Below are positions 1 through 8,139 of a DNA stretch of 64,000 bases, one piece after another. The translations under genes and the position numbers were made by a program. Positions within the stretch are counted from its first letter, which is position 1; every line of letters starts with the position of its first letter. The stretch spans positions 28,959 to 92,958 of the forward strand of contig WLWZ01000014.1 of assembly GCA_012103315.1 (NCBI GenBank), read 5' to 3'. Origin of the DNA: Alphaproteobacteria bacterium (GTDB lineage: Bacteria; Pseudomonadota; Alphaproteobacteria; MPNO01; UBA2964). The notes under the pieces were generated by a model that made no database searches, was not told where the DNA came from, and saw only the letters and a list, made by a program, of their open reading frames with translations.

Positions 1-333
1 TTTTCGCGAGATATTCCGACTCTTACCCGCACCGAATTTCGCGATGTTATGATGGTATTTTTAAAGAAGCACGACATGTCACTCGATGACATTGATGAAT
101 TCATTTGCCATCCGGGAGGTGCAAAAGTGCTGGACGCATTGGAAGACGCCTTCAATCTTCCGTCAGGTGGTCTCGACACTTCGCGCGAGATTTTGAAAAA
201 CTACGGTAATATGTCTGCCGTGACCGTTCTTTTTGTTTTGGAAAAAGTTCTACAAGAACGAAAACAAGGACGACTTCTATTAACGTCTCTGGGTCCTGGG
301 TTCACGGCAGCCTTCATGACGATGACCGCATGA
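1..333 (+). CDS. Type III polyketide synthase (chalcone/stilbene synthase family), C-terminal fragment; 5' end lies outside the window
   Basis: Frame 1 is open from nt 1. The motif ICHPGGAKVLDALEDAFNLPSGGLDTSREILKNYGNMSAVTVLFVLEK is typical of the C-terminus of bacterial type III PKS. Confidence 0.75.
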   Translation, partial: FSRDIPTLTRTEFRDVMMVFLKKHDMSLDDIDEFICHPGGAKVLDALEDAFNLPSGGLDTSREILKNYGNMSAVTVLFVLEKVLQERKQGRLLLTSLGPGFTAAFMTMTA

Positions 334-839
334 GCATTCTCTATGCCGTTTTGCTATTTGTTGTTGCTCAACGCCTGGTGGAGCTCGTTATCGCGAAACG
401 GAATACCGCGGCGTTGATCGCTGATGGTGGCATCGAACATGGCGCCGCTCATTACCCTCTCATTGTGTTGTTACATTTATGCTGGATTGCGTCGCTCGCC
501 TATTTTATTCCGGCGGACCAGCCCGCGGTTTGGTCCCTACTCGGTGTTTTCGCGGTTTTACAAGGACTTAGGGTCTGGGTGCTTGTGACGTTGGGGCGGC
601 GTTGGACCACGCGTGTTATCGAGATTCCCGGAGAACCGCCTGTTGCCACGGGTCTCTATCGCTGGGTTCGTCACCCTAACTATCTGATTGTCGCGGGCGA
701 AATCCTCATGCTGCCATTGGCATTCGGCGCCTGGGAAATCGCGGTGATATTCTCTGTGCTCAATGGCATGGTTCTTTGGCATAGAATTCGTGTTGAGAAT
801 GTTGCCCTCGATAATATGGCCGGGACGATAAATGAATAA
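330..839 (+). CDS. Isoprenylcysteine carboxyl methyltransferase (ICMT)-family membrane methyltransferase
   Basis: Multi-TM protein with the RWVRHPNYL motif of the ICMT/phospholipid methyltransferase family. ATGA start/stop overlap with the upstream PKS suggests translational coupling. Confidence 0.7.
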   Translation: MSILYAVLLFVVAQRLVELVIAKRNTAALIADGGIEHGAAHYPLIVLLHLCWIASLAYFIPADQPAVWSLLGVFAVLQGLRVWVLVTLGRRWTTRVIEIPGEPPVATGLYRWVRHPNYLIVAGEILMLPLAFGAWEIAVIFSVLNGMVLWHRIRVENVALDNMAGTINE

Positions 840-922
840 ACAGCGATGCCGCGTGTTGTTATGATATGCGGGCCTATAATTACCGCTAGAATGCGTGAAC
901 TAAAAAACTTGGGGGAAACTGG

Positions 923-2578
923 ATGATCCGGCGCGTCAGGCTTGCAACAGGCCTCGTCCTGTTTTTCTACGTAACAACGCATTTGTTAAACCACGCACTG
1001 GGGTTGATCTCTTACGCCGCGATGGAGGATGGCCGCTTCTGGTTTTTGGGCCTTTGGCGCAATCCGGTCGGAACTATAGCGCTCTATGGATCAATGATGA
1101 TCCATTTCATGCTGGCGCTCTGGGCTCTCTATGACCGACGGCGGCTCAAATTCTCTATCGGAGAAGCGCTTCAGTTAAGTCTTGGTATTGCTATACCTTT
1201 GCTTCTCGCGTTGCATATCGTTGGAACGCGGGGCGCGCATGAAATCGCCGGGACGAATGATAATTACGCATTTGTTCTCCTCATTCATTTCAAATTTGCG
1301 CCCGAGGTTGTCTTTACACAGACTGCAGCTGTTATCGCCGCCTGGGTGCATGGCTGTATCGGGCTTTTTTACTGGCTTCGCCTCAAACCCTGGTTTTCGA
1401 AATGGTCGCAAGTTCTCTTCAGCTTTGCGTTGTTGATCCCGGTTTTGTCGATCCTTGGTTATATCGAGGGCGGTCGTGAAGTTCTGGCGCTGTTTGAGAA
1501 TAAGGAATGGCGAGATGCGGCACGGGCGGCAATCAATTTCCCATCGAACGAGGCCCGCGCACAAATAGAGTTTATTGCGCAAATGGATCGATCGATTGTT
1601 GTTGGGTCCTTTATATTGGTCCTTCTTGCGCGAGGCGTTCGTGCGTTGCTAGCCCGACGGCGAGGTATCGTTCATGTTACCTATCCTGACGGCAAGGCGG
1701 TAAGCGTTGCACCAGGGACAACAATTCTCGAAGCCAGCAAATCAAATGATATCCCGCACGCATCGGTCTGTGGTGGTCGTGGCCGATGTTCAACTTGTCG
1801 GGTACGCATTGTTGACGGTGAAGAAGCGTTGCCCGCGATATCGGATGATGAACAAAAAGTTCTGGACCGGATAAGTGCCCCACCTCATGTTCGGTTGGCC
1901 TGTCAAACACGTCCCATTAAAGACGTAACCGTGATGCCTTTGTTGCCGCCCACAGCGACACCAAAGGACGGTCATCAGCGCGCGGCCCATCATATGGGGC
2001 AGGAAAAGGAGATCGTGATCCTGTTCGCTGATTTACGTGATTTCACGAAATTCTCCGAGCAAAAACTGCCGTATGACTTGGTTTTTGTCCTGAACCGGTA
2101 TTTTGCCAATATGGGCGGTGCGGTTGGCGAGGCAGGTGGTCATCTCGATAAATTCATTGGAGATGGTGTCATGGCTCTGTTTGGCGTTGATGTACCAATT
2201 GCGGAAGGTGCCAAGCAAGCAATGAAGGCGGCGAAGCTCATGACTGAGCGTCTGGAAGAGCTTAATCAAACGTTGGCTGGTGAACTCGCTGAACCCTTGA
2301 GGATCGGTATTGGACTCCATGCTGGGCCGGCCATCATTGGCGAAATGGGGTATGGCGAGACCACGAGTCTCACGGCAGTTGGCGATGCGGTGAATACCGC
2401 TAGCCGTATTGAATCGATGACTAAGGAATACAAGGCTCAACTCATGTTGTCGCAAGGCGTTGCTGACCATGCAGGAATTGATTTATCGAGTTTTCCAAGC
2501 CATCAGCTTGACGTTCGCGGCCGTTCGGAGGATATCACTGCCCGAGTTATCGTGAACGCTAAAGATTTGCCAATTTAA
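923..2578 (+). CDS. Membrane-anchored 2Fe-2S ferredoxin-domain adenylate cyclase (class III)
   Basis: About 240 aa of N-terminal TM helices rich in His. A plant-type ferredoxin motif follows (CGGRGRCSTC...LACQT). The C-terminus is a class III cyclase domain (ILFADLRDFTKF, DKFIGDGVMALFG) with Lys at the substrate-specifying position, which points to adenylate cyclase. Confidence 0.75.
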   Translation: MIRRVRLATGLVLFFYVTTHLLNHALGLISYAAMEDGRFWFLGLWRNPVGTIALYGSMMIHFMLALWALYDRRRLKFSIGEALQLSLGIAIPLLLALHIVGTRGAHEIAGTNDNYAFVLLIHFKFAPEVVFTQTAAVIAAWVHGCIGLFYWLRLKPWFSKWSQVLFSFALLIPVLSILGYIEGGREVLALFENKEWRDAARAAINFPSNEARAQIEFIAQMDRSIVVGSFILVLLARGVRALLARRRGIVHVTYPDGKAVSVAPGTTILEASKSNDIPHASVCGGRGRCSTCRVRIVDGEEALPAISDDEQKVLDRISAPPHVRLACQTRPIKDVTVMPLLPPTATPKDGHQRAAHHMGQEKEIVILFADLRDFTKFSEQKLPYDLVFVLNRYFANMGGAVGEAGGHLDKFIGDGVMALFGVDVPIAEGAKQAMKAAKLMTERLEELNQTLAGELAEPLRIGIGLHAGPAIIGEMGYGETTSLTAVGDAVNTASRIESMTKEYKAQLMLSQGVADHAGIDLSSFPSHQLDVRGRSEDITARVIVNAKDLPI

Positions 2579-2597: not shown

Positions 2598-3056
2598 ATG
2601 AAATACAGCAATATCTATTTTGAAGACTTTGAAATGGGTCGTGTGTTCGAAACGGATACTCGTGAAATATCGGCGGAAGACATCATGGACTTCGGAAACG
2701 ACTTCGCGCCACTGCCCTATCACACTGATCCTGAAGCAGCGAAAGATTACATGTTTGGCGAGCTTGTTGCGGCTGGCTTTCATACCTGTTCGATAAGCTT
2801 TGGGCTGTTTATTCGCGCCGGCATCTTTGATGATTGTGCCATGGGGTCTCCGGGGTTCAACAAACTCCGCTGGAAGAAGCCGGTAAAGCCGGGGGATGTG
2901 TTAAAGGTTGCTGCAACGGTAACTGAGGCCTCGCCTGCCCGCGACGAGAATGGCCGAAATCTAATTTCATTGATGTTTGTTACGACAAATCAGAATGATG
3001 AACCTGTTTTGGAGATGGAAACCCGGCATTTCGTTCGCTCTCGTCCGCAAACCTAA
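2598..3056 (+). CDS. MaoC-like (R)-specific enoyl-CoA hydratase/dehydratase (hotdog fold)
   Basis: 152 aa with recognisable MaoC dehydratase motifs (DFGNDFAPLPYHTDPEAA, hotdog core). Confidence 0.65.
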   Translation: MKYSNIYFEDFEMGRVFETDTREISAEDIMDFGNDFAPLPYHTDPEAAKDYMFGELVAAGFHTCSISFGLFIRAGIFDDCAMGSPGFNKLRWKKPVKPGDVLKVAATVTEASPARDENGRNLISLMFVTTNQNDEPVLEMETRHFVRSRPQT

Positions 3057-3135: not shown

Positions 3136-4848
3136 ATGCCGCAAAAGACAATTACAGACGGTACCGTTTCTGACGCCTATTTGGCGCTCTTGGCGGATAG
3201 AGGCATCGACTATTTTTTTGGTAATGCGGGAACAGATTTCGCTCCGATTATTGAGTCCTTTGCCAAGGCGCAGGCACTGGGTACACCGGCACCAAAAGCT
3301 ATGCTCGTGCCGCACGAAAATCTCGCGATCCATATGGCGCTTGGTTATTACGCGGTAACGGGGAAGCCGCAAGTGGTTATGGTGCATGTCAATGTCGGTA
3401 CGGCAAATGCGCTCAACGGCATTATCAACGCTAGCCGTGGCAATATTCCGGTCCTCTTTAGTTCCGGTCGTACGCCCTATTCAGAAACCGGTGACCGGGA
3501 AGGAAAACGTACCCGTGAAGTGCATTGGCCGCAGGAAATGTTTGATCAAGGTGCACTGGCTCGTGAGATGGTCAAATGGGATTACGAGCTAAAGGACAAG
3601 GCGGTTCTAGAGACCGTTGTCGACCGGGCTATCAATGTCGCCATGACGGAACCCAGAGGCCCAATCTATCTCACTCTCCCCCGTGAACCTCTGGCTGAGA
3701 AGTTCGATAGCTTTGATTTCACGTCTCCATCCCGTCATGCGACCCCGACGGTTGCGTGGCCTGATCCTAATGCGATTGACCAGTTGGCATCGCGTATTGC
3801 GAATGCTGAAAATCCTCTGATAATTACTCAGGACTCAGGCGCGGATGTGAATGCTGTGGCGCCGCTTGCGGCTCTGTCGGATCGTTTTGCCATTCCGGTC
3901 ATCCAACGAAAGCCACGCTATCTCTGTCTGCCAACAGATCATCCGATGCATCTTGGATATGACTCTGACCCCTATCTCGACTTCGCAGATTTAATCATTG
4001 TCGCGCAATGTGATGTCCCGTGGATACCAAGTGTGAAATCACCAGGTCCAGGCTGTACCGTGGTTCATATGGGACCGGACCCCATCTATAGCGATTACCC
4101 CATCCGGGGGTATGAGGCGGACATGGCGATTACGGGCTCCATGGCACCGTCGTTCCGAATGTTGGATGATGCTCTTGCCGGACTCGAAACGAGCGCCAAA
4201 CCGTCAATTGATACGCGGCGTAAACGGGTCGCTGGTTTGCGCGACATGATGCATGAGAATTGGGCGGCTGGACTAGAGAAATCAAAAAGCGCTTCGCCGA
4301 TGAGCCAGGCTTGGATCAGCCATTGCATTAGCGAAGTCAAAGATGATGACACCATCCTGATTACGGAATCTGCATTTGCTATGGCTCAGATGGAACTGAC
4401 AAGGCCTGGCAGCTTTATCTCCGGCGGGGCCGGTGGTGGAATCGGCTATGGATTGGGCATGTCCCTTGGTGCCAAATTGGCCGCGAAGGATCGTATGGTG
4501 ATCTGCACACAGGGTGATGGCGCCTACATGTACGGCAATCCGGTCCCCGCTCACTATGTTGGTCAGGCCGAAGGTTTACCGACCCTCACCGTCATCATGA
4601 ATAACGAGCAGTGGGGTGCAGTGAAACGCAACACCCGCGCGATGTATCCTGATGGCTACGCTGTCAAAAGCAATCGCGAAGACCTGACCTTTTTCGAAGG
4701 CGGCATGGCGTTTGAAAAAACGATGGATATTGCTGGTGGTTATGGCGAACGTGTCGAAGATCCTGCTGAGCTTCCGAAAGCCCTTGAACGGGGAGCAAAA
4801 GCCGTTAGTGACGGGCAACCGGCAGTGTTGAATTTACAGACGGTGTGA
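3136..4848 (+). CDS. Thiamine-pyrophosphate-dependent enzyme (acetolactate synthase/benzoylformate decarboxylase family)
   Basis: 570 aa with the three-domain TPP enzyme layout. It has the N-terminal pyrimidine-binding region (FGNAGTDFAPII) and a C-terminal TPP-binding GDGAYMYG ... NNEQWG motif. Confidence 0.7.
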   Translation: MPQKTITDGTVSDAYLALLADRGIDYFFGNAGTDFAPIIESFAKAQALGTPAPKAMLVPHENLAIHMALGYYAVTGKPQVVMVHVNVGTANALNGIINASRGNIPVLFSSGRTPYSETGDREGKRTREVHWPQEMFDQGALAREMVKWDYELKDKAVLETVVDRAINVAMTEPRGPIYLTLPREPLAEKFDSFDFTSPSRHATPTVAWPDPNAIDQLASRIANAENPLIITQDSGADVNAVAPLAALSDRFAIPVIQRKPRYLCLPTDHPMHLGYDSDPYLDFADLIIVAQCDVPWIPSVKSPGPGCTVVHMGPDPIYSDYPIRGYEADMAITGSMAPSFRMLDDALAGLETSAKPSIDTRRKRVAGLRDMMHENWAAGLEKSKSASPMSQAWISHCISEVKDDDTILITESAFAMAQMELTRPGSFISGGAGGGIGYGLGMSLGAKLAAKDRMVICTQGDGAYMYGNPVPAHYVGQAEGLPTLTVIMNNEQWGAVKRNTRAMYPDGYAVKSNREDLTFFEGGMAFEKTMDIAGGYGERVEDPAELPKALERGAKAVSDGQPAVLNLQTV

Positions 4849-6417
4849 TCACGCGTCGATCAGCGCGCGACGGAGAACTTTGCCGACCGGGCTCTTGGGT
4901 AGTTCGTCGATAAACTCAACCAATTGCGGAACCTTGTAGGGGGCTATTCGTTCTTTTAAAGCTGCTCGGATTTGCTCCGGCTGTTCTACCGTCCCGTCTT
5001 TCAAAACAACCACCGCCCGAATTTTGTTGCCAATTTCTTTGTCGGGTGACGGTACGACACATGCTTCCGCGATTCCCTCTATCTGCCTGAGAGCATTTTC
5101 AATCTCGATCGGTGAGATAAAGATGCCGCGGCTTTTGAAACAATCGTCATTGCGCCCTGCGATCCACAAAAATCCATCTTCATCGGCATAGGCTAGGTCG
5201 CCGGTGTGATACCAGCCATCATGGGTGACCTCATCGGTTTTGGCTTGATCCTTGTGGTAGCCAAGAAAGAACCCCGGATTGTTTGAGTCGATCAACATAT
5301 GCCCGACTTCACCTATCGGCACCGGCTGATAATCATCATCGAGGACCTCAACACGGGTGCCGGGCAATGGCTTACCCACCGAACCCGGCTTGATCGGCCA
5401 ATGCGGGCATTGACCAAAGACTAGCTGCATTTCTGAAATACCGTAATGTTCCCAGATCGGGCAGCCGATACGGTTAAACCATTCGGTATAGGTCGCCGCC
5501 TCCAGTGCTTCGCCGGTAGCGTTGCAGCCGCGCAATGACGTTAGGTCGAATTGGTTTTCAACCCCGTCGATGGCGAGAATTCTTCGGTAAACTGTGGCCA
5601 CGGAATACATGACGGTGACGCCAAGTGTCTCCACCGTTTTCAAAACGCGTTCCGGATGCATGCGCCCTTCCAGGATGGCTCCTGTGACGCCATTCCGCAG
5701 CGGATAGAGGACATTGTGGCCGAGGGCACTGATAAAGCTCCACTCGCCGGTTGCCATGGCGACGTCGTTTTCTTTGGGCTGGATACGAAGCTTGTTGGTA
5801 TCGCCCTGTGCGACAATCCAACGATGTGCATGGACAATACCTTTAGGATTTCCTGTCGTCCCTGACGTATAGACCATGAAGGCAGGATCATTGGCACCAG
5901 TATCAGCGGTTTGGATATCCAGCTTGTCATTACTTGCGATCAACTCTTCGAAGACTTGATCACCGGCCTCTGATCCACGCGCGACGATAATGCCGCGTGG
6001 GAGTTCTGCAGACAGCGTTCGGACAGGTTCCGCTATGTCGTCGAGTGTAATTGCTGCGACAGCGTCGCTATGCTCCCGAACGTATGCGACTTCCGACGCC
6101 CCCAGCAGCGAATTTTGCAGAACCGGCACGGCGCCCAGTTTTACCAGCGCAAGAAAGCTAACGATAAACTCAATGCAGTTCGGCAAACGGATCAGGACGT
6201 GATCTGTTTTGGATATGCCTAAATCACGCAAGCCAGTAGCCAGGCTACAGACGCGTTGATTTAGCTCGGCATAAGAGATACTGCCCTGAGCGTCTTTAAA
6301 GGCGATACTTGCGCCATTGCCTGATGCAATTTGCTTGTCGAGAGTCTCAGCGGTGATATTCAGCCGTTCCGGGATTTCGCGGTAACCCGGCCAAGTTTCT
6401 ATCTCGTCGGTCGTCAT
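4849..6417 (-). CDS. Aryl/acyl-CoA ligase (AMP-forming, benzoate-CoA ligase-like)
   Basis: Carries the YTSGTTGNPKG AMP-binding motif. The N-terminus resembles aromatic-acid CoA ligases. Confidence 0.75.
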   Translation of the reverse strand: MTTDEIETWPGYREIPERLNITAETLDKQIASGNGASIAFKDAQGSISYAELNQRVCSLATGLRDLGISKTDHVLIRLPNCIEFIVSFLALVKLGAVPVLQNSLLGASEVAYVREHSDAVAAITLDDIAEPVRTLSAELPRGIIVARGSEAGDQVFEELIASNDKLDIQTADTGANDPAFMVYTSGTTGNPKGIVHAHRWIVAQGDTNKLRIQPKENDVAMATGEWSFISALGHNVLYPLRNGVTGAILEGRMHPERVLKTVETLGVTVMYSVATVYRRILAIDGVENQFDLTSLRGCNATGEALEAATYTEWFNRIGCPIWEHYGISEMQLVFGQCPHWPIKPGSVGKPLPGTRVEVLDDDYQPVPIGEVGHMLIDSNNPGFFLGYHKDQAKTDEVTHDGWYHTGDLAYADEDGFLWIAGRNDDCFKSRGIFISPIEIENALRQIEGIAEACVVPSPDKEIGNKIRAVVVLKDGTVEQPEQIRAALKERIAPYKVPQLVEFIDELPKSPVGKVLRRALIDA

Positions 6418-7322
6418 CCCTTTTTTGAACCGTCCGGGAAAGGCCAGTTGTCATAGTAAGGCCCGCGGAATTCAGGGTCGCGTTTCTCTAGGAATGCCCT
6501 TATGCCTTCGTGACAGTCTTTGGTGCGGGTAATTTCTTTGATCGCGTTCAACTCCCGTTGCCAACCTTCATCAGTGCGGTTTTGGTTCCAGTAATGTTTG
6601 ACCAAATCCTTGGCTTTGCGAACGGAATGATACGGATTGTTGGCAATCTTTGTCGCGAGCTTGAAAGCGCCATCCATTAATTCGTCATGCGGAAACACAC
6701 GATCGACAAGACCTATCCGTTCGGCCTCGTCAGCCAAGATGATGTCGCCGGTCATGATCATTTCCATTGCTCGACCAATGCCGACGAGTTTGGGAAGATT
6801 TCGTGCACCCCCGGACTCAGGCAGGAAACCAGCGGGCACTGCGACTTCACCGAGCTTTGCCTTATCAGAGGCGTAGCGAATGTCACACAATGTACAAATT
6901 TCGAGGCCAATCCCAACGGCTGGGCCGTTGATCGCAGCAATCACGACTGGTGGCAAATCTTCAAATTTCCGAAAAGCCCGTTGGAGAACTTCGTGTCGGA
7001 GATCGTTGAAGAAATAGCCAGCGAGCTCCTTGTAAGCGCCGAAGTTACCGAAATCGAAATCTTCTTCACCAGCCCCAAGGGGATCAGCTTCGGTTTTGAG
7101 GTCACCGCCGGCAGAGAAGCCCCTACCCTCGCCGGTTATAACGACCGCTCTGATGTGGCTGCTGGCAGCTATTTCATCACAAAGAATATCGAGCTCGACA
7201 CGCATACGGACGTCGACCGCATTGAGAGCTTCAGGACGGTTGAGCGTGATGACACCGATGCATTTCTCCCCTGGCCGATCAGGGTTTTCATGCACCTCCC
7301 ATTTGAGGGCTTCGTATTTCAT
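6414..7322 (-). CDS. Enoyl-CoA hydratase/isomerase (crotonase) family protein
   Basis: Crotonase fold motifs (ALNAVD, GEGRGFSAGGDL). Its stop overlaps the start of the ligase by 4 nt. Confidence 0.75.
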   Translation of the reverse strand: MKYEALKWEVHENPDRPGEKCIGVITLNRPEALNAVDVRMRVELDILCDEIAASSHIRAVVITGEGRGFSAGGDLKTEADPLGAGEEDFDFGNFGAYKELAGYFFNDLRHEVLQRAFRKFEDLPPVVIAAINGPAVGIGLEICTLCDIRYASDKAKLGEVAVPAGFLPESGGARNLPKLVGIGRAMEMIMTGDIILADEAERIGLVDRVFPHDELMDGAFKLATKIANNPYHSVRKAKDLVKHYWNQNRTDEGWQRELNAIKEITRTKDCHEGIRAFLEKRDPEFRGPYYDNWPFPDGSKKG

Positions 7323-7338
7323 TGCGTCTCTCCTAGGT

Positions 7339-8139
7339 TCAGGTGCCGACTTTTAACGGGGAAACTAATCCCCTCAAACAGGCGATAACACTCAAAGCTG
7401 TAATTTTCCCGGTGCCCGGTTTTTCTTCCGATTGGACATTCTCGATACTCATCTCGAAGGTCGCGCTGTCGGAAACGACCCGGATTGCATGTGTATTACG
7501 GCTTAGCTCTGGATCGGCCCATATCTCTAGCTTGGTTCTGTCAGGGCCAATCCCGGCTAGTCCGAGTGCCGCTGCGACATTGACGTTTGCTGGAAAACCG
7601 GCAGCGCCATCGCGCGCGGACCCATCAAAGACCTTTTTGGGTTCGTTAAGTCCTTCAACCGAAATATCGTTGTCCACGAGATGCGGCGCCCCGATCAACG
7701 CGTTTGGTGGCTTGCGGGTGATCATGATAACTTCTTCGATCGTGCCTTCTGCGGCAGCGCGAACGGCATCAAGGCCCAGGAGAGCACCAGTCGCGAGGAT
7801 AATTCGTCCTTGTCCAGAATTCGCCAGTTCCACTGTGTCAGGGTTCGCTAGTATGCCAGCTGCGCTGACAGTTACGAACAAACGGCCCGCATTAAGAGCT
7901 GGAATGGCGAATGTATTGAAAGCTTCTTTTGGCACACACTCGACTACGATATCGCAAGTCTCGGCCAACTCTTCCGGGCTCATCACTGGTACCGGATTGG
8001 ATAAACCCTCCATCCGAGCTTCGCCGCGCGCAACATCGCGGACGCAGATCGCTGCCAGTTCCAATCCTTCAATACCGCTATCCAACGCCTCGCCGACGAC
8101 TTTGCCAATTGCGCCGTATCCGGCGATCCCTACTTTCAC
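7339..8139 (-). CDS. L-aspartate dehydrogenase-like (NadX family) NAD(P)-binding protein
   Basis: N-terminal MKVGIAGYGAIGK Rossmann motif, about 266 aa, and an overall pattern similar to NadX. Confidence 0.55.
   Translation of the reverse strand: MKVGIAGYGAIGKVVGEALDSGIEGLELAAICVRDVARGEARMEGLSNPVPVMSPEELAETCDIVVECVPKEAFNTFAIPALNAGRLFVTVSAAGILANPDTVELANSGQGRIILATGALLGLDAVRAAAEGTIEEVIMITRKPPNALIGAPHLVDNDISVEGLNEPKKVFDGSARDGAAGFPANVNVAAALGLAGIGPDRTKLEIWADPELSRNTHAIRVVSDSATFEMSIENVQSEEKPGTGKITALSVIACLRGLVSPLKVGT

Follow-up and report, generated by a model that had tools for sequence, protein, structure and literature searches.

The window, the stretch of 64,000 nucleotides analysed here, opens inside the gene of a type III polyketide synthase (PKS), which is followed on the same strand by genes for an ICMT-family membrane methyltransferase, a CyaC-like cyclase and a MaoC-like (R)-hydratase (Table 1). 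The cyclase gene is the subject of this report, and its product divides into a membrane anchor, a Fer2 [2Fe-2S] domain, a Pro-rich linker and a class III catalytic domain.

Table 1. Coordinates of the features at the cyclase locus (positions in the window, residues of the cyclase protein)
Feature	Residues	Positions	Strand	Basis and remarks
Type III polyketide synthase, 3' end		1..333	+	Pfam Chal_sti_synt_C; frame open from base 1, start outside the window
ICMT-family membrane methyltransferase, BpsB/DquB-like		330..839	+	Pfam ICMT, E 1.9e-26; 4-bp overlap with the PKS stop
ICMT-cyaC intergenic gap, 83 bp		840..922	+	sigma-70-like match at 837-865; GGGGGA Shine-Dalgarno-like run before the ATG
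cyaC-like gene	551 aa	923..2578	+	ORF listing; ATG start, coordinates include the stop codon
Membrane anchor	1-247	923..1663	+	six TM helices
Fer2 [2Fe-2S] domain	~250-335	1670..1927	+	Pfam PF00111
Pro-rich linker VTVMPLLPPTATPKDGHQRAAHHMGQE	~336-358	1928..1996	+	low-confidence model, pLDDT 61-73 in blocks 341-360
Class IIIb cyclase domain	~359-543	1997..2551	+	Pfam PF00211, PDB matches
MaoC-like (R)-hydratase gene		2598..3056	+	Pfam MaoC_dehydratas, E 8e-15; 19 bases past the cyclase stop

The cyclase is encoded by a single, unbroken reading frame. Within this one polypeptide, Pfam recognizes both Fer2 (residues 256-331; E 1.1e-11, score 44.9 bits, threshold 21) and Guanylate_cyc (residues 360-507; E 7.1e-18, score 65.3 bits, threshold 21.9), which confirms a combination that a sequence-only reading of this DNA had proposed for a single frame. 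That reading had also named a frameshift as a possible source of error; such an artefact, or one of fusion, is ruled out by homologues that are of equal length and contain both domains. About 8,000 database proteins match the protein at E <= 1e-5; among the matches listed, all 120 have the two domains, and nearly all are 547-581 residues long and cover 99-100% of the query.

Proteins that combine the anchor and Fer2 with a different output, or that lack the cyclase, were also looked for. Full-length proteins make up 50 of the 150 representatives examined, and no solid case of an alternative architecture was found: most of the others end at the edge of the alignment or continue into Arg/Pro/Ala-rich, out-of-frame tails, as would be expected of fragments or of gene calls with a frameshift. 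The full-length monomer model has a pTM of only 0.55, and the relative arrangement of its domains is tentative.

The membrane anchor

AlphaFold predicts the anchor (pLDDT 90.2) as six long transmembrane (TM) helices, spanning approximately residues 2-28, 48-71, 79-109, 127-152, 158-191 and 209-247, together with three short helices (31-45, 115-125 and 194-204). The sequence has six hydrophobic segments, and its charges fit the positive-inside rule, with Lys and Arg enriched at the N-terminus, in the loops at 72-78 and 153-157 and after TM6; this pattern places the N-terminus, the Fer2 domain and the cyclase in the cytoplasm. CyaC-type cyclases are characterised by this layout, hexahelical in the membrane and with both the N-terminus and the C-terminal effector in the cytoplasm. 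The loop between TM5 and TM6, on the periplasmic side, includes the conserved residues W196 and P207.

Across 121 sequences, five intramembrane histidines stand out by their conservation: H20 (99%) and H24 (98%) on TM1, H61 (99%) on TM2, H98 (100%) on TM3 and H143 (100%) on TM4. Their depths alternate from helix to helix, and they are candidate heme ligands; H106 (69%) and H122 (62%) are not conserved. The tetra-histidine signature of CyaC-type anchors is present with one conserved histidine beyond the four needed, and, because five are conserved where four suffice, H20 and H24 are alternative candidates for one heme ligand. The earlier description of some 240 residues of TM helices with conserved, possibly heme-binding histidines is well founded, in view of these five invariant or near-invariant residues and of the homology to di-heme CyaC.

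In a fold-level comparison, the predicted structure of the anchor is similar to the cytochrome b of di-heme SQR/QFR. Together with the histidine pattern, this predicted fold argues for kinship, at the fold level, with the cytochrome b found in succinate:quinone oxidoreductases of the di-heme type. As in FrdC-type cytochrome b (W. succinogenes FrdC, 1e7p_C; D. gigas, 5xmj_C; b558 family, 9lay_C), TM1 to TM4 each carry a conserved histidine, whose depth alternates from one helix to the next; in FrdC, such an arrangement ligates one distal and one proximal heme. The differences are nonetheless considerable. Identity to type-B cytochrome b subunits is only 14-15%, with no significant sequence-profile match; the anchor has no match in Pfam at E <= 10, and a 21-sequence anchor profile run against PDB sequences gives chance matches only (E ~1), with FrdC/SdhC undetected. 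The anchor has six TM helices where the type-B subunit has five, and Fer2 and a cyclase continue its own polypeptide chain, whereas the FrdC type docks to flavoprotein and Fe-S subunits. No frdA/frdB-like genes, such as would accompany a respiratory type-B SQR/QFR, lie near the cyclase gene; the anchor protein is a sensor and not a catalytic respiratory complex.

The [2Fe-2S] domain and the catalytic centre

No linker separates TM6 from the Fer2 domain: in the full-length model, residue 247 is the last of the TM6 helix and residue 250 opens the first Fer2 strand. The Fer2 ligands C283, C289, C292 and C327, which lie in CGGRGRCSTCRV...LACQT, are invariant, and this four-Cys 2Fe-2S domain occupies the position, between anchor and catalytic part, that it has in CyaC-type proteins. 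Plant-type ferredoxins space their cysteines as C-x4-C-x2-C-x29-C. The spacing computed here is C-x5-C-x2-C-x34-C, which is the pattern of adrenodoxin, putidaredoxin and NqrF, and the best sequence matches of the domain are NqrF, an ISC ferredoxin and an adrenodoxin homologue. What had been called a plant-type 2Fe-2S ferredoxin is thus a 2Fe-2S Fer2 domain as stated, but one of adrenodoxin/NqrF-like rather than plant type.

The catalytic domain has a complete class IIIb centre, consisting of the metal-binding D370 and D414, the substrate-specifying K410 and T484 and the transition-state residues N491 and R495, all six of which are invariant. K410 and D414 belong to the DKFIGDG motif, whose Lys had been read as a sign of a class III cyclase acting on ATP; K410 and T484 are indeed the class IIIb pair for ATP. 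The presence and invariance of D370 and D414 likewise answer the earlier concern that the domain might be inactive for want of metal-binding Asp residues.

The matches in the PDB are headed by 2w01 (E 1e-24), followed by 6fht. The first of these is the Synechocystis guanylate cyclase Cya2, which, together with the fact that cGMP controls cyst development in Rhodospirillum centenum, could be counted in favour of a catalytic domain that makes cGMP; a related possibility is that it is an inactive pseudo-cyclase serving as a scaffold. Both are very hard to reconcile with the residues found, and we regard them as highly improbable. Cya2 has Glu and Gly in place of the ATP-specifying Lys410 and Thr484, and K410 aligns with a specificity position that is Glu in Cya2 and Lys in the engineered adenylate cyclase 6fht, its Glu-to-Lys form; a guanylate cyclase is rejected on this Lys/Thr pair. 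A pseudo-cyclase is at odds with the invariance of both metal-binding Asp residues and of the Asn/Arg pair, and CyaC of S. meliloti loses its adenylate cyclase activity when it carries K410A/T484A or N491A/R495A (Klein et al. 2023, PMC10463352).

Relation to CyaC and a possible redox mechanism

In the account of Wissig et al. (2019, Mol Microbiol 112:16) given by Klein et al. (2023, PMC10463352), the CyaC protein of Sinorhizobium meliloti (SMc01818) contains a [2Fe-2S] cluster and two heme B. Ubiquinone oxidises and reduces these hemes directly, the redox sensitivity of the protein is attributed to them, and oxidation turns the cyclase on. CyaC and the protein described here share the domain order 6TM, Fer2, class III cyclase, and K410, T484, N491 and R495 bear identical numbers in both; judged from the published residue numbers of CyaC, the two proteins are collinear. 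Homologues on rhizobial plasmids share 46-47% of their residues with it in alignments that cover 99% of the length. The host of CyaC is S. meliloti, that of the present protein an uncultured, apparently marine or aquatic alphaproteobacterium.

The same type of anchor was recognized by Beltz et al. (2016, PMC4821796) as 'cluster 1' of the 6TM cyclase anchors, a group of 30 sequences exemplified by Rhodopseudomonas palustris Q132R4, for which two hemes held by four TM histidines were predicted and which were similar to FrdC/SdhC by BLAST. The present protein is like the members of cluster 1 in its class IIIb catalytic domain, in the ferredoxin between anchor and catalytic domain, in four spaced intramembrane histidines and in its alphaproteobacterial origin, whereas the similarity to FrdC/SdhC is reproduced here at the level of fold only, and not against PDB sequences or Pfam. 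The membrane domain by itself now accounts for 2,620 clusters at 50% identity, so that a family of 30 sequences has become one of ~2,600 clusters, counted on the anchor alone.

The gene product is, very probably, a CyaC-type redox-sensing membrane adenylate cyclase in which a di-heme-type anchor is combined with a [2Fe-2S] domain and a class IIIb cyclase. The sequence-only reading had proposed redox-gated synthesis of cAMP from the domain layout; the idea is supported by homology and matches the published behaviour of the CyaC family, all of whose defining residues are present, although what was put forward as new is already known for that family.

By homology to CyaC, the protein is expected to contain hemes and an Fe-S cluster, to respond to quinone and to be on when oxidised, and its mechanism may be pictured as follows. 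TM1-TM4 of the six helices would make up a four-helix bundle resembling the cytochrome b subunit that di-heme succinate dehydrogenases and fumarate reductases possess, and this bundle would hold two heme B. The distal heme, on the periplasmic side, would be bound by H98 and either H20 or H24, and the proximal heme, on the cytoplasmic side, by H61 and H143, a tentative assignment that we infer from the depth of the residues in the helices. Membrane quinone and quinol would oxidise and reduce the hemes; the [2Fe-2S] domain, at the cytoplasmic end of TM6 and beside the proximal heme, would either equilibrate with them or relay the resulting change. The oxidised state would favour the active cyclase dimer and, with it, the conversion of ATP to cAMP.

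A different primary signal can be considered, namely O2, reactive oxygen species, NO or iron, sensed directly by the cytoplasmic [2Fe-2S] cluster through its oxidation or loss, in the manner of SoxR or IscR, with the hemes serving mainly as structural elements or as an electron sink. The four cysteines and their flanks (H279, GGRGRCSTCR) are conserved as strictly as the heme ligands, and the cluster domain, interposed between anchor and catalytic domain, lies on the path that any signal has to take. We nevertheless consider direct sensing by the cluster quite unlikely: the predicted fold of the anchor is that of a cytochrome b that reacts with quinone, the conservation of five TM histidines across a very large family argues against hemes that are merely structural, and the redox sensitivity of CyaC is described as heme-based, with direct oxidation and reduction by ubiquinone (PMC10463352).

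The polyketide synthase neighbourhood

The cyclase gene does lie directly downstream of a type III PKS/ICMT pair, as had been noted from the sequence, across a gap of 83 bp. A promoter and terminator scan of this gap found no terminator between ICMT and cyaC, and one sigma-70-like match, the match count being not above the shuffled expectation. On the other side, the MaoC gene is probably co-transcribed with the cyclase; it is equally placed in L001, L002, L004 (with a 4-bp overlap), L005, L009 and L024 among the homologous loci and in the P0008 contig. Further neighbours of the cyclase are a ThDP enzyme, an acyl-CoA ligase and an enoyl-CoA hydratase, and in most relatives a TPR gene stands between the upstream genes and the cyclase. 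De novo clustering of the neighbours in 87 loci found no universal partner; the commonest was the TPR gene, in 14 loci, and the 14 most frequent neighbour clusters included none of the TetR or LysR family. This differs from the situation in S. meliloti, where cyaC is flanked by genes for a LysR (smc01817) and a TetR (cycR) regulator (PMC10463352). Neither is adjacent to the present cyclase gene, which has PKS-ICMT upstream and MaoC downstream; downstream signalling partners may consequently differ from those of S. meliloti.

Pairs of PKS and ICMT genes make membrane phenolic lipids that are tied to spores and cysts, and polyketide quinones that serve as respiratory electron carriers are the products of related type III PKS operons; formation of the quinone requires a third gene, for a PkqC/SrsC oxidoreductase. 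The type III PKS here is followed immediately by ICMT, which makes the two a candidate phenolic-lipid pair of the BpsAB/DquAB type. It shares this pairing with BpsA/BpsB, DquA/DquB, SrsA/SrsB and PkqA/PkqB, with a stop/start overlap between the two genes in the present case. In L004, where the orthologous PKS is complete, its closest match is the alkylpyrone synthase Pks11 of M. tuberculosis (E 6e-55). A third oxidoreductase gene of the PkqABC/SrsABC kind is not adjacent in the window, L004, L005 or L006, and the literature examined on the Bps, Dqu, Srs and Pkq pairs mentions no neighbouring cyclase.

These genes raise the question of whether the cyclase is coupled to PKS-ICMT. The anchor might sense an O-methylated alkylresorcinol or alkylpyrone, or a quinone derived from it, instead of or besides ubiquinone; or cAMP might control the production of phenolic lipid, for example in a resting-cell programme. 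The order PKS-ICMT-(TPR)-cyclase-(MaoC) recurs on one strand in seven loci of one alphaproteobacterial clade (the window, L002, L004, L005, L006, L024 and L026), with cyclase identity down to 57%, and in L006 a PKS::ICMT fusion is directly upstream of the cyclase. The terminator-free gap, the resemblance of the PKS to Pks11, the association of such pairs with spores and cysts and the quinone carriers made by related operons point in the same direction.

The distribution of the pair tells another story. It is missing at this site in eight members of the same clade with enough flanking sequence (L001, whose cyclase is 90% identical, L009, L014-L018 and the P0008 contig), a pattern that on the tree requires at least three independent losses. 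It is absent beside the cyclase in about 45 more distant loci, for each of which 2.5 kb or more of upstream sequence was available, and at the R. etli homologue. Synteny in the clade extends to RecG and DUF502, so that inherited gene order can explain the adjacency; the PKS-ICMT pair, inserted between DUF502 and the cyclase, is dispensable. Coupling through a quinone is further opposed by the missing PkqC/SrsC-type gene, and characterised CyaC answers to ubiquinone without any PKS (PMC10463352). Coupling is, on this evidence, unlikely. The adjacency on which the sequence-only reading based its link to cyst formation is real; the functional link that it drew is weakened by the restriction of the pair to seven loci of one clade and by its absence from the other eight clade members and the distant loci.

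There is, similarly, a small chance that one mostly marine or aquatic clade recruited a CyaC-type quinone sensor into a module of PKS, ICMT, secreted TPR protein, cyclase and MaoC, in which the anchor would monitor a phenolic or quinone lipid derived from the PKS, or cAMP would govern that lipid's production. If so, second-messenger signalling would be linked to an alternative redox lipid of the membrane.

In summary, assignment of the protein to the CyaC type adds no new principle to what 6TM cyclase anchors sense. It extends to uncultured alphaproteobacteria an experimentally characterised type of sensor, in which the quinone pool's redox state is converted into cAMP through a fumarate-reductase-like di-heme anchor, and indicates that the CyaC-type family is far larger than its first 30 sequences. 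The clade-specific neighbourhood of PKS-ICMT, secreted TPR protein and MaoC could, in turn, point to the process that the cAMP signal controls.

A ferredoxin–cyclase fusion, probably of the CyaC type

The cyclase ORF is uninterrupted and matches both Fer2 and Guanylate_cyc in Pfam, each far over its curated cut-off; for the ~248 residues at its N-terminus Pfam gives no match even up to E ≤ 10. Among 5.8 billion proteins searched, ~8,000 match it at E ≤ 1e-5; both domains occur in all 120 of the matches listed, nearly all of which are 547–581 aa long with 99–100% query coverage, and an alphaproteobacterial MAG protein on record (P0001) is identical. Because the homologues share domains, length and coverage, the fusion proposed by the sequence-only reading is real, and its origin as a frameshift artefact was rejected. 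One relative with 57% identity (P0112), recorded as the brown alga Discosporangium mesarthrocarpum, is probably bacterial contamination in a eukaryotic assembly. Three antisense ORFs (100–145 aa) across the ICMT and cyclase genes, of low-complexity or odd composition, are most probably non-coding shadows of the genes they overlap.

The architecture, consisting of a 6TM anchor, Fer2 and a class IIIb cyclase, is already published, with S. meliloti as the organism in which it was characterised. A "cluster 1" of 6TM anchors was described by Beltz et al. 2016 (PMC4821796), belonging to class IIIb cyclases in which a ferredoxin separates anchor and catalytic domain; these anchors have four spaced TM histidines, reportedly resemble cytochrome b of fumarate reductase/succinate dehydrogenase and are confidently predicted to carry two hemes. 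According to the passages of Klein et al. 2023 (PMC10463352) that sum up the experiments of Wissig et al. 2019 on CyaC, its 6TM domain binds two heme B, the protein also has a [2Fe-2S] cluster, ubiquinone both oxidises and reduces the hemes, and oxidation switches the cyclase on. The catalytic residues of CyaC (Lys410/Thr484 and Asn491/Arg495; PMC10463352) have exactly the same numbers in the window protein, so that collinearity of the two extends over at least 495 residues. For homologues on rhizobial plasmids, identity is 46–47% over 99% of the length, and the anchor family alone amounts to 2,620 clusters at 50% identity (E ≤ 1e-3).

Within the catalytic domain, K410 aligns with the specificity Glu of the Synechocystis guanylate cyclase Cya2 (2w01; HMMER alignment), and a Lys occupies the equivalent position in 6fht, an engineered adenylate-cyclase version of Cya2; the second specificity position is T484. 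Lys plus Thr is the ATP pair of class IIIb enzymes, and the protein is predicted from these residues to be ATP-specific, as first proposed. This substrate pair was confirmed for CyaC (Klein et al. 2023, PMC10463352).

Features of the cyclase, its gene neighbourhood and related loci (aa, cyclase residues; L-numbers, related loci; other positions, window)
Feature	Position	Strand	Remarks
Cyclase ORF	923–2578	+	551 aa
Fer2 (PF00111)	aa 256–331		Pfam, E 1.1e-11
Guanylate_cyc (PF00211)	aa 360–507		Pfam, E 7.1e-18
Catalytic-domain residues	D370, D414, K410, T484, N491, R495		invariant (121 sequences)
TM histidines	H20, H61, H98, H143		99–100% conserved (121 sequences)
TM histidine	H24		98% conserved (121 sequences)
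Other histidines	H106, H122		variable: 69%, 62% (121 sequences)
Fer2 cysteines	C283, C289, C292, C327		invariant (121 sequences)
ICMT-family methyltransferase	330–839		overlaps PKS stop codon
Antisense ORFs	680–982, 1175–1582, 2033–2470	−
TPR gene	L004:4414–4887; L005:4384–4860; L002:5451–5936
MaoC-like (R)-hydratase	2598–3056; L004:6683–7138		immediately downstream of cyclase
ThDP-dependent enzyme	3136–4848	+
AMP-binding acyl-CoA ligase	4849–6417	−
Enoyl-CoA hydratase	6414–7322	−
Aspartate-dehydrogenase-like protein	7339–8139	−
PKS::ICMT fusion	L006:2850–4565		571 aa
ThDP-enzyme homologue	L001:8218–9947		query 1–136, 126–570
tblastn matches to cyclase	L014:4209–9508		~5 kb

Membrane anchor, cluster domain and probable redox control

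Hydropathy delineates six hydrophobic segments, and Lys/Arg residues cluster at the N-terminus, in loops 72–78 and 153–157 and past TM6, a distribution that indicates an N-in/C-in topology with cytoplasmic Fer2 and cyclase domains. Conservation was read from 121 sequences with identities of 46–100%, one being a Rhizobium etli plasmid homologue. Given 20 family members, AlphaFold models residues 1–248 with confidence (pLDDT 90.2, pTM 0.85), and Foldseek independently ranks W. succinogenes FrdC as the top match (TM 0.54–0.55, ~220 aligned columns); since a sequence profile of the anchor does not detect FrdC-type proteins, this kinship rests on fold and histidine pattern. The conserved histidines are spread over TM1 to TM4 and alternate in depth. 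In FrdC, the distal and proximal hemes are likewise ligated by histidines at alternating depths on TM1 to TM4. Judging from helix positions in the model, H20/H24 and H98 would face the periplasmic side and H61 and H143 the cytoplasmic side, so placed that these candidate ligands may mirror the distal/proximal pairs of FrdC.

The 2Fe-2S ferredoxin assignment stands, whereas the label "plant-type" was not quite right, given the cysteine spacing (C-x5-C-x2-C-x34-C) and closest relatives among NqrF, ISC ferredoxin and adrenodoxin-type proteins. In a full-length model (pLDDT 87, pTM 0.55), TM6 (209–247) continues straight into Fer2, whose first strand begins at residue 250, a junction that would hold the cluster domain close against the membrane surface; confidence is low for the Pro-rich linker between Fer2 and cyclase.

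The window protein is very probably a CyaC-type sensor cyclase, relaying the quinone pool's redox state through its hemes to cAMP synthesis when oxidised. Whether the two b hemes, and probably the [2Fe-2S] cluster as well, are oxidised or reduced would be set by the membrane quinone pool, with the oxidised state favouring the active homodimer and cAMP formation. Layout, fold and residue conservation are seen in the window protein itself; cofactor binding, quinone reactivity and direction of regulation would follow CyaC by homology, which also lends support to the original interpretation of redox-gated cAMP synthesis.

Gene neighbourhood

As first noted, a type III PKS/ICMT pair lies upstream of the cyclase gene in the window. 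The products of BpsAB- and DquAB-type pairs are O-methylated alkylpyrones and alkylresorcinols; for such clusters to form quinones, a third gene, an oxidoreductase, is needed, and none was seen at these loci. The PKS orthologue in L004 has M. tuberculosis Pks11 as its closest match. Comparison covered 86 related loci (2 genome, 1 plasmid, 3 exact-protein look-ups, 80 metagenomic) and one further contig known from its gene list only. Where cyclase identity is ~55% or more, the clade shows the order RecG, DUF502(−), (PKS-ICMT), TPR, cyclase, (MaoC). The window, L002, L004, L005, L006 (where PKS and ICMT are fused), L024 and L026 carry PKS-ICMT, which is missing at the same site in L001 (cyclase 90% identical), L009, L014–L018 and the P0008 contig, a pattern implying a single gain and three or more losses on a neighbour-joining tree. 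Farther out, none of the ~45 loci that have 2.5 kb or more of sequence upstream carries it, nor does the R. etli homologue locus. Synteny extends to the flanking housekeeping genes as well, so the adjacency is sufficiently explained by inherited gene order; a promoter/terminator scan of the 83-bp ICMT–cyclase gap was uninformative, and functional coupling of the cyclase to PKS-ICMT appears improbable.

The single L006 gene, which immediately precedes the TPR and cyclase genes, joins a type III PKS (Chal_sti_synt_N, FAE1_CUT1_RppA) to ICMT and supports PKS-ICMT working as a unit. L001 and L002 largely preserve the genes of acyl-CoA-type metabolism that lie downstream in the window (3136–8139); the L001 match to the ThDP enzyme falls into two overlapping pieces in different frames, suggesting a frameshift or assembly error. 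High-scoring cyclase matches across L014 suggest that a further class III cyclase gene follows the CyaC-like gene there, a few kb downstream.

TPR and MaoC genes are more constant partners of the cyclase than PKS-ICMT. Directly upstream of the cyclase, most members of the clade with 55% cyclase identity or more have a gene for a secreted TPR protein of ~155 aa, which is missing from the window (840–922) and L001; distant relatives often have a homologue downstream on the opposite strand, several of them just downstream, and TPR is the commonest neighbour of the family. One distant TPR representative has an N-terminal hydrophobic leader, and the protein might contact the cyclase at the conserved periplasmic TM5–TM6 loop (W196, P207). 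The MaoC gene, 19 bases from the cyclase stop in the window and overlapping it by 4 bp in L004, is kept in 8 loci, some without PKS-ICMT, which suggests a cyclase-maoC operon. Beyond the literature, the only lead is this clade-specific neighbourhood of PKS-ICMT, TPR and MaoC genes.
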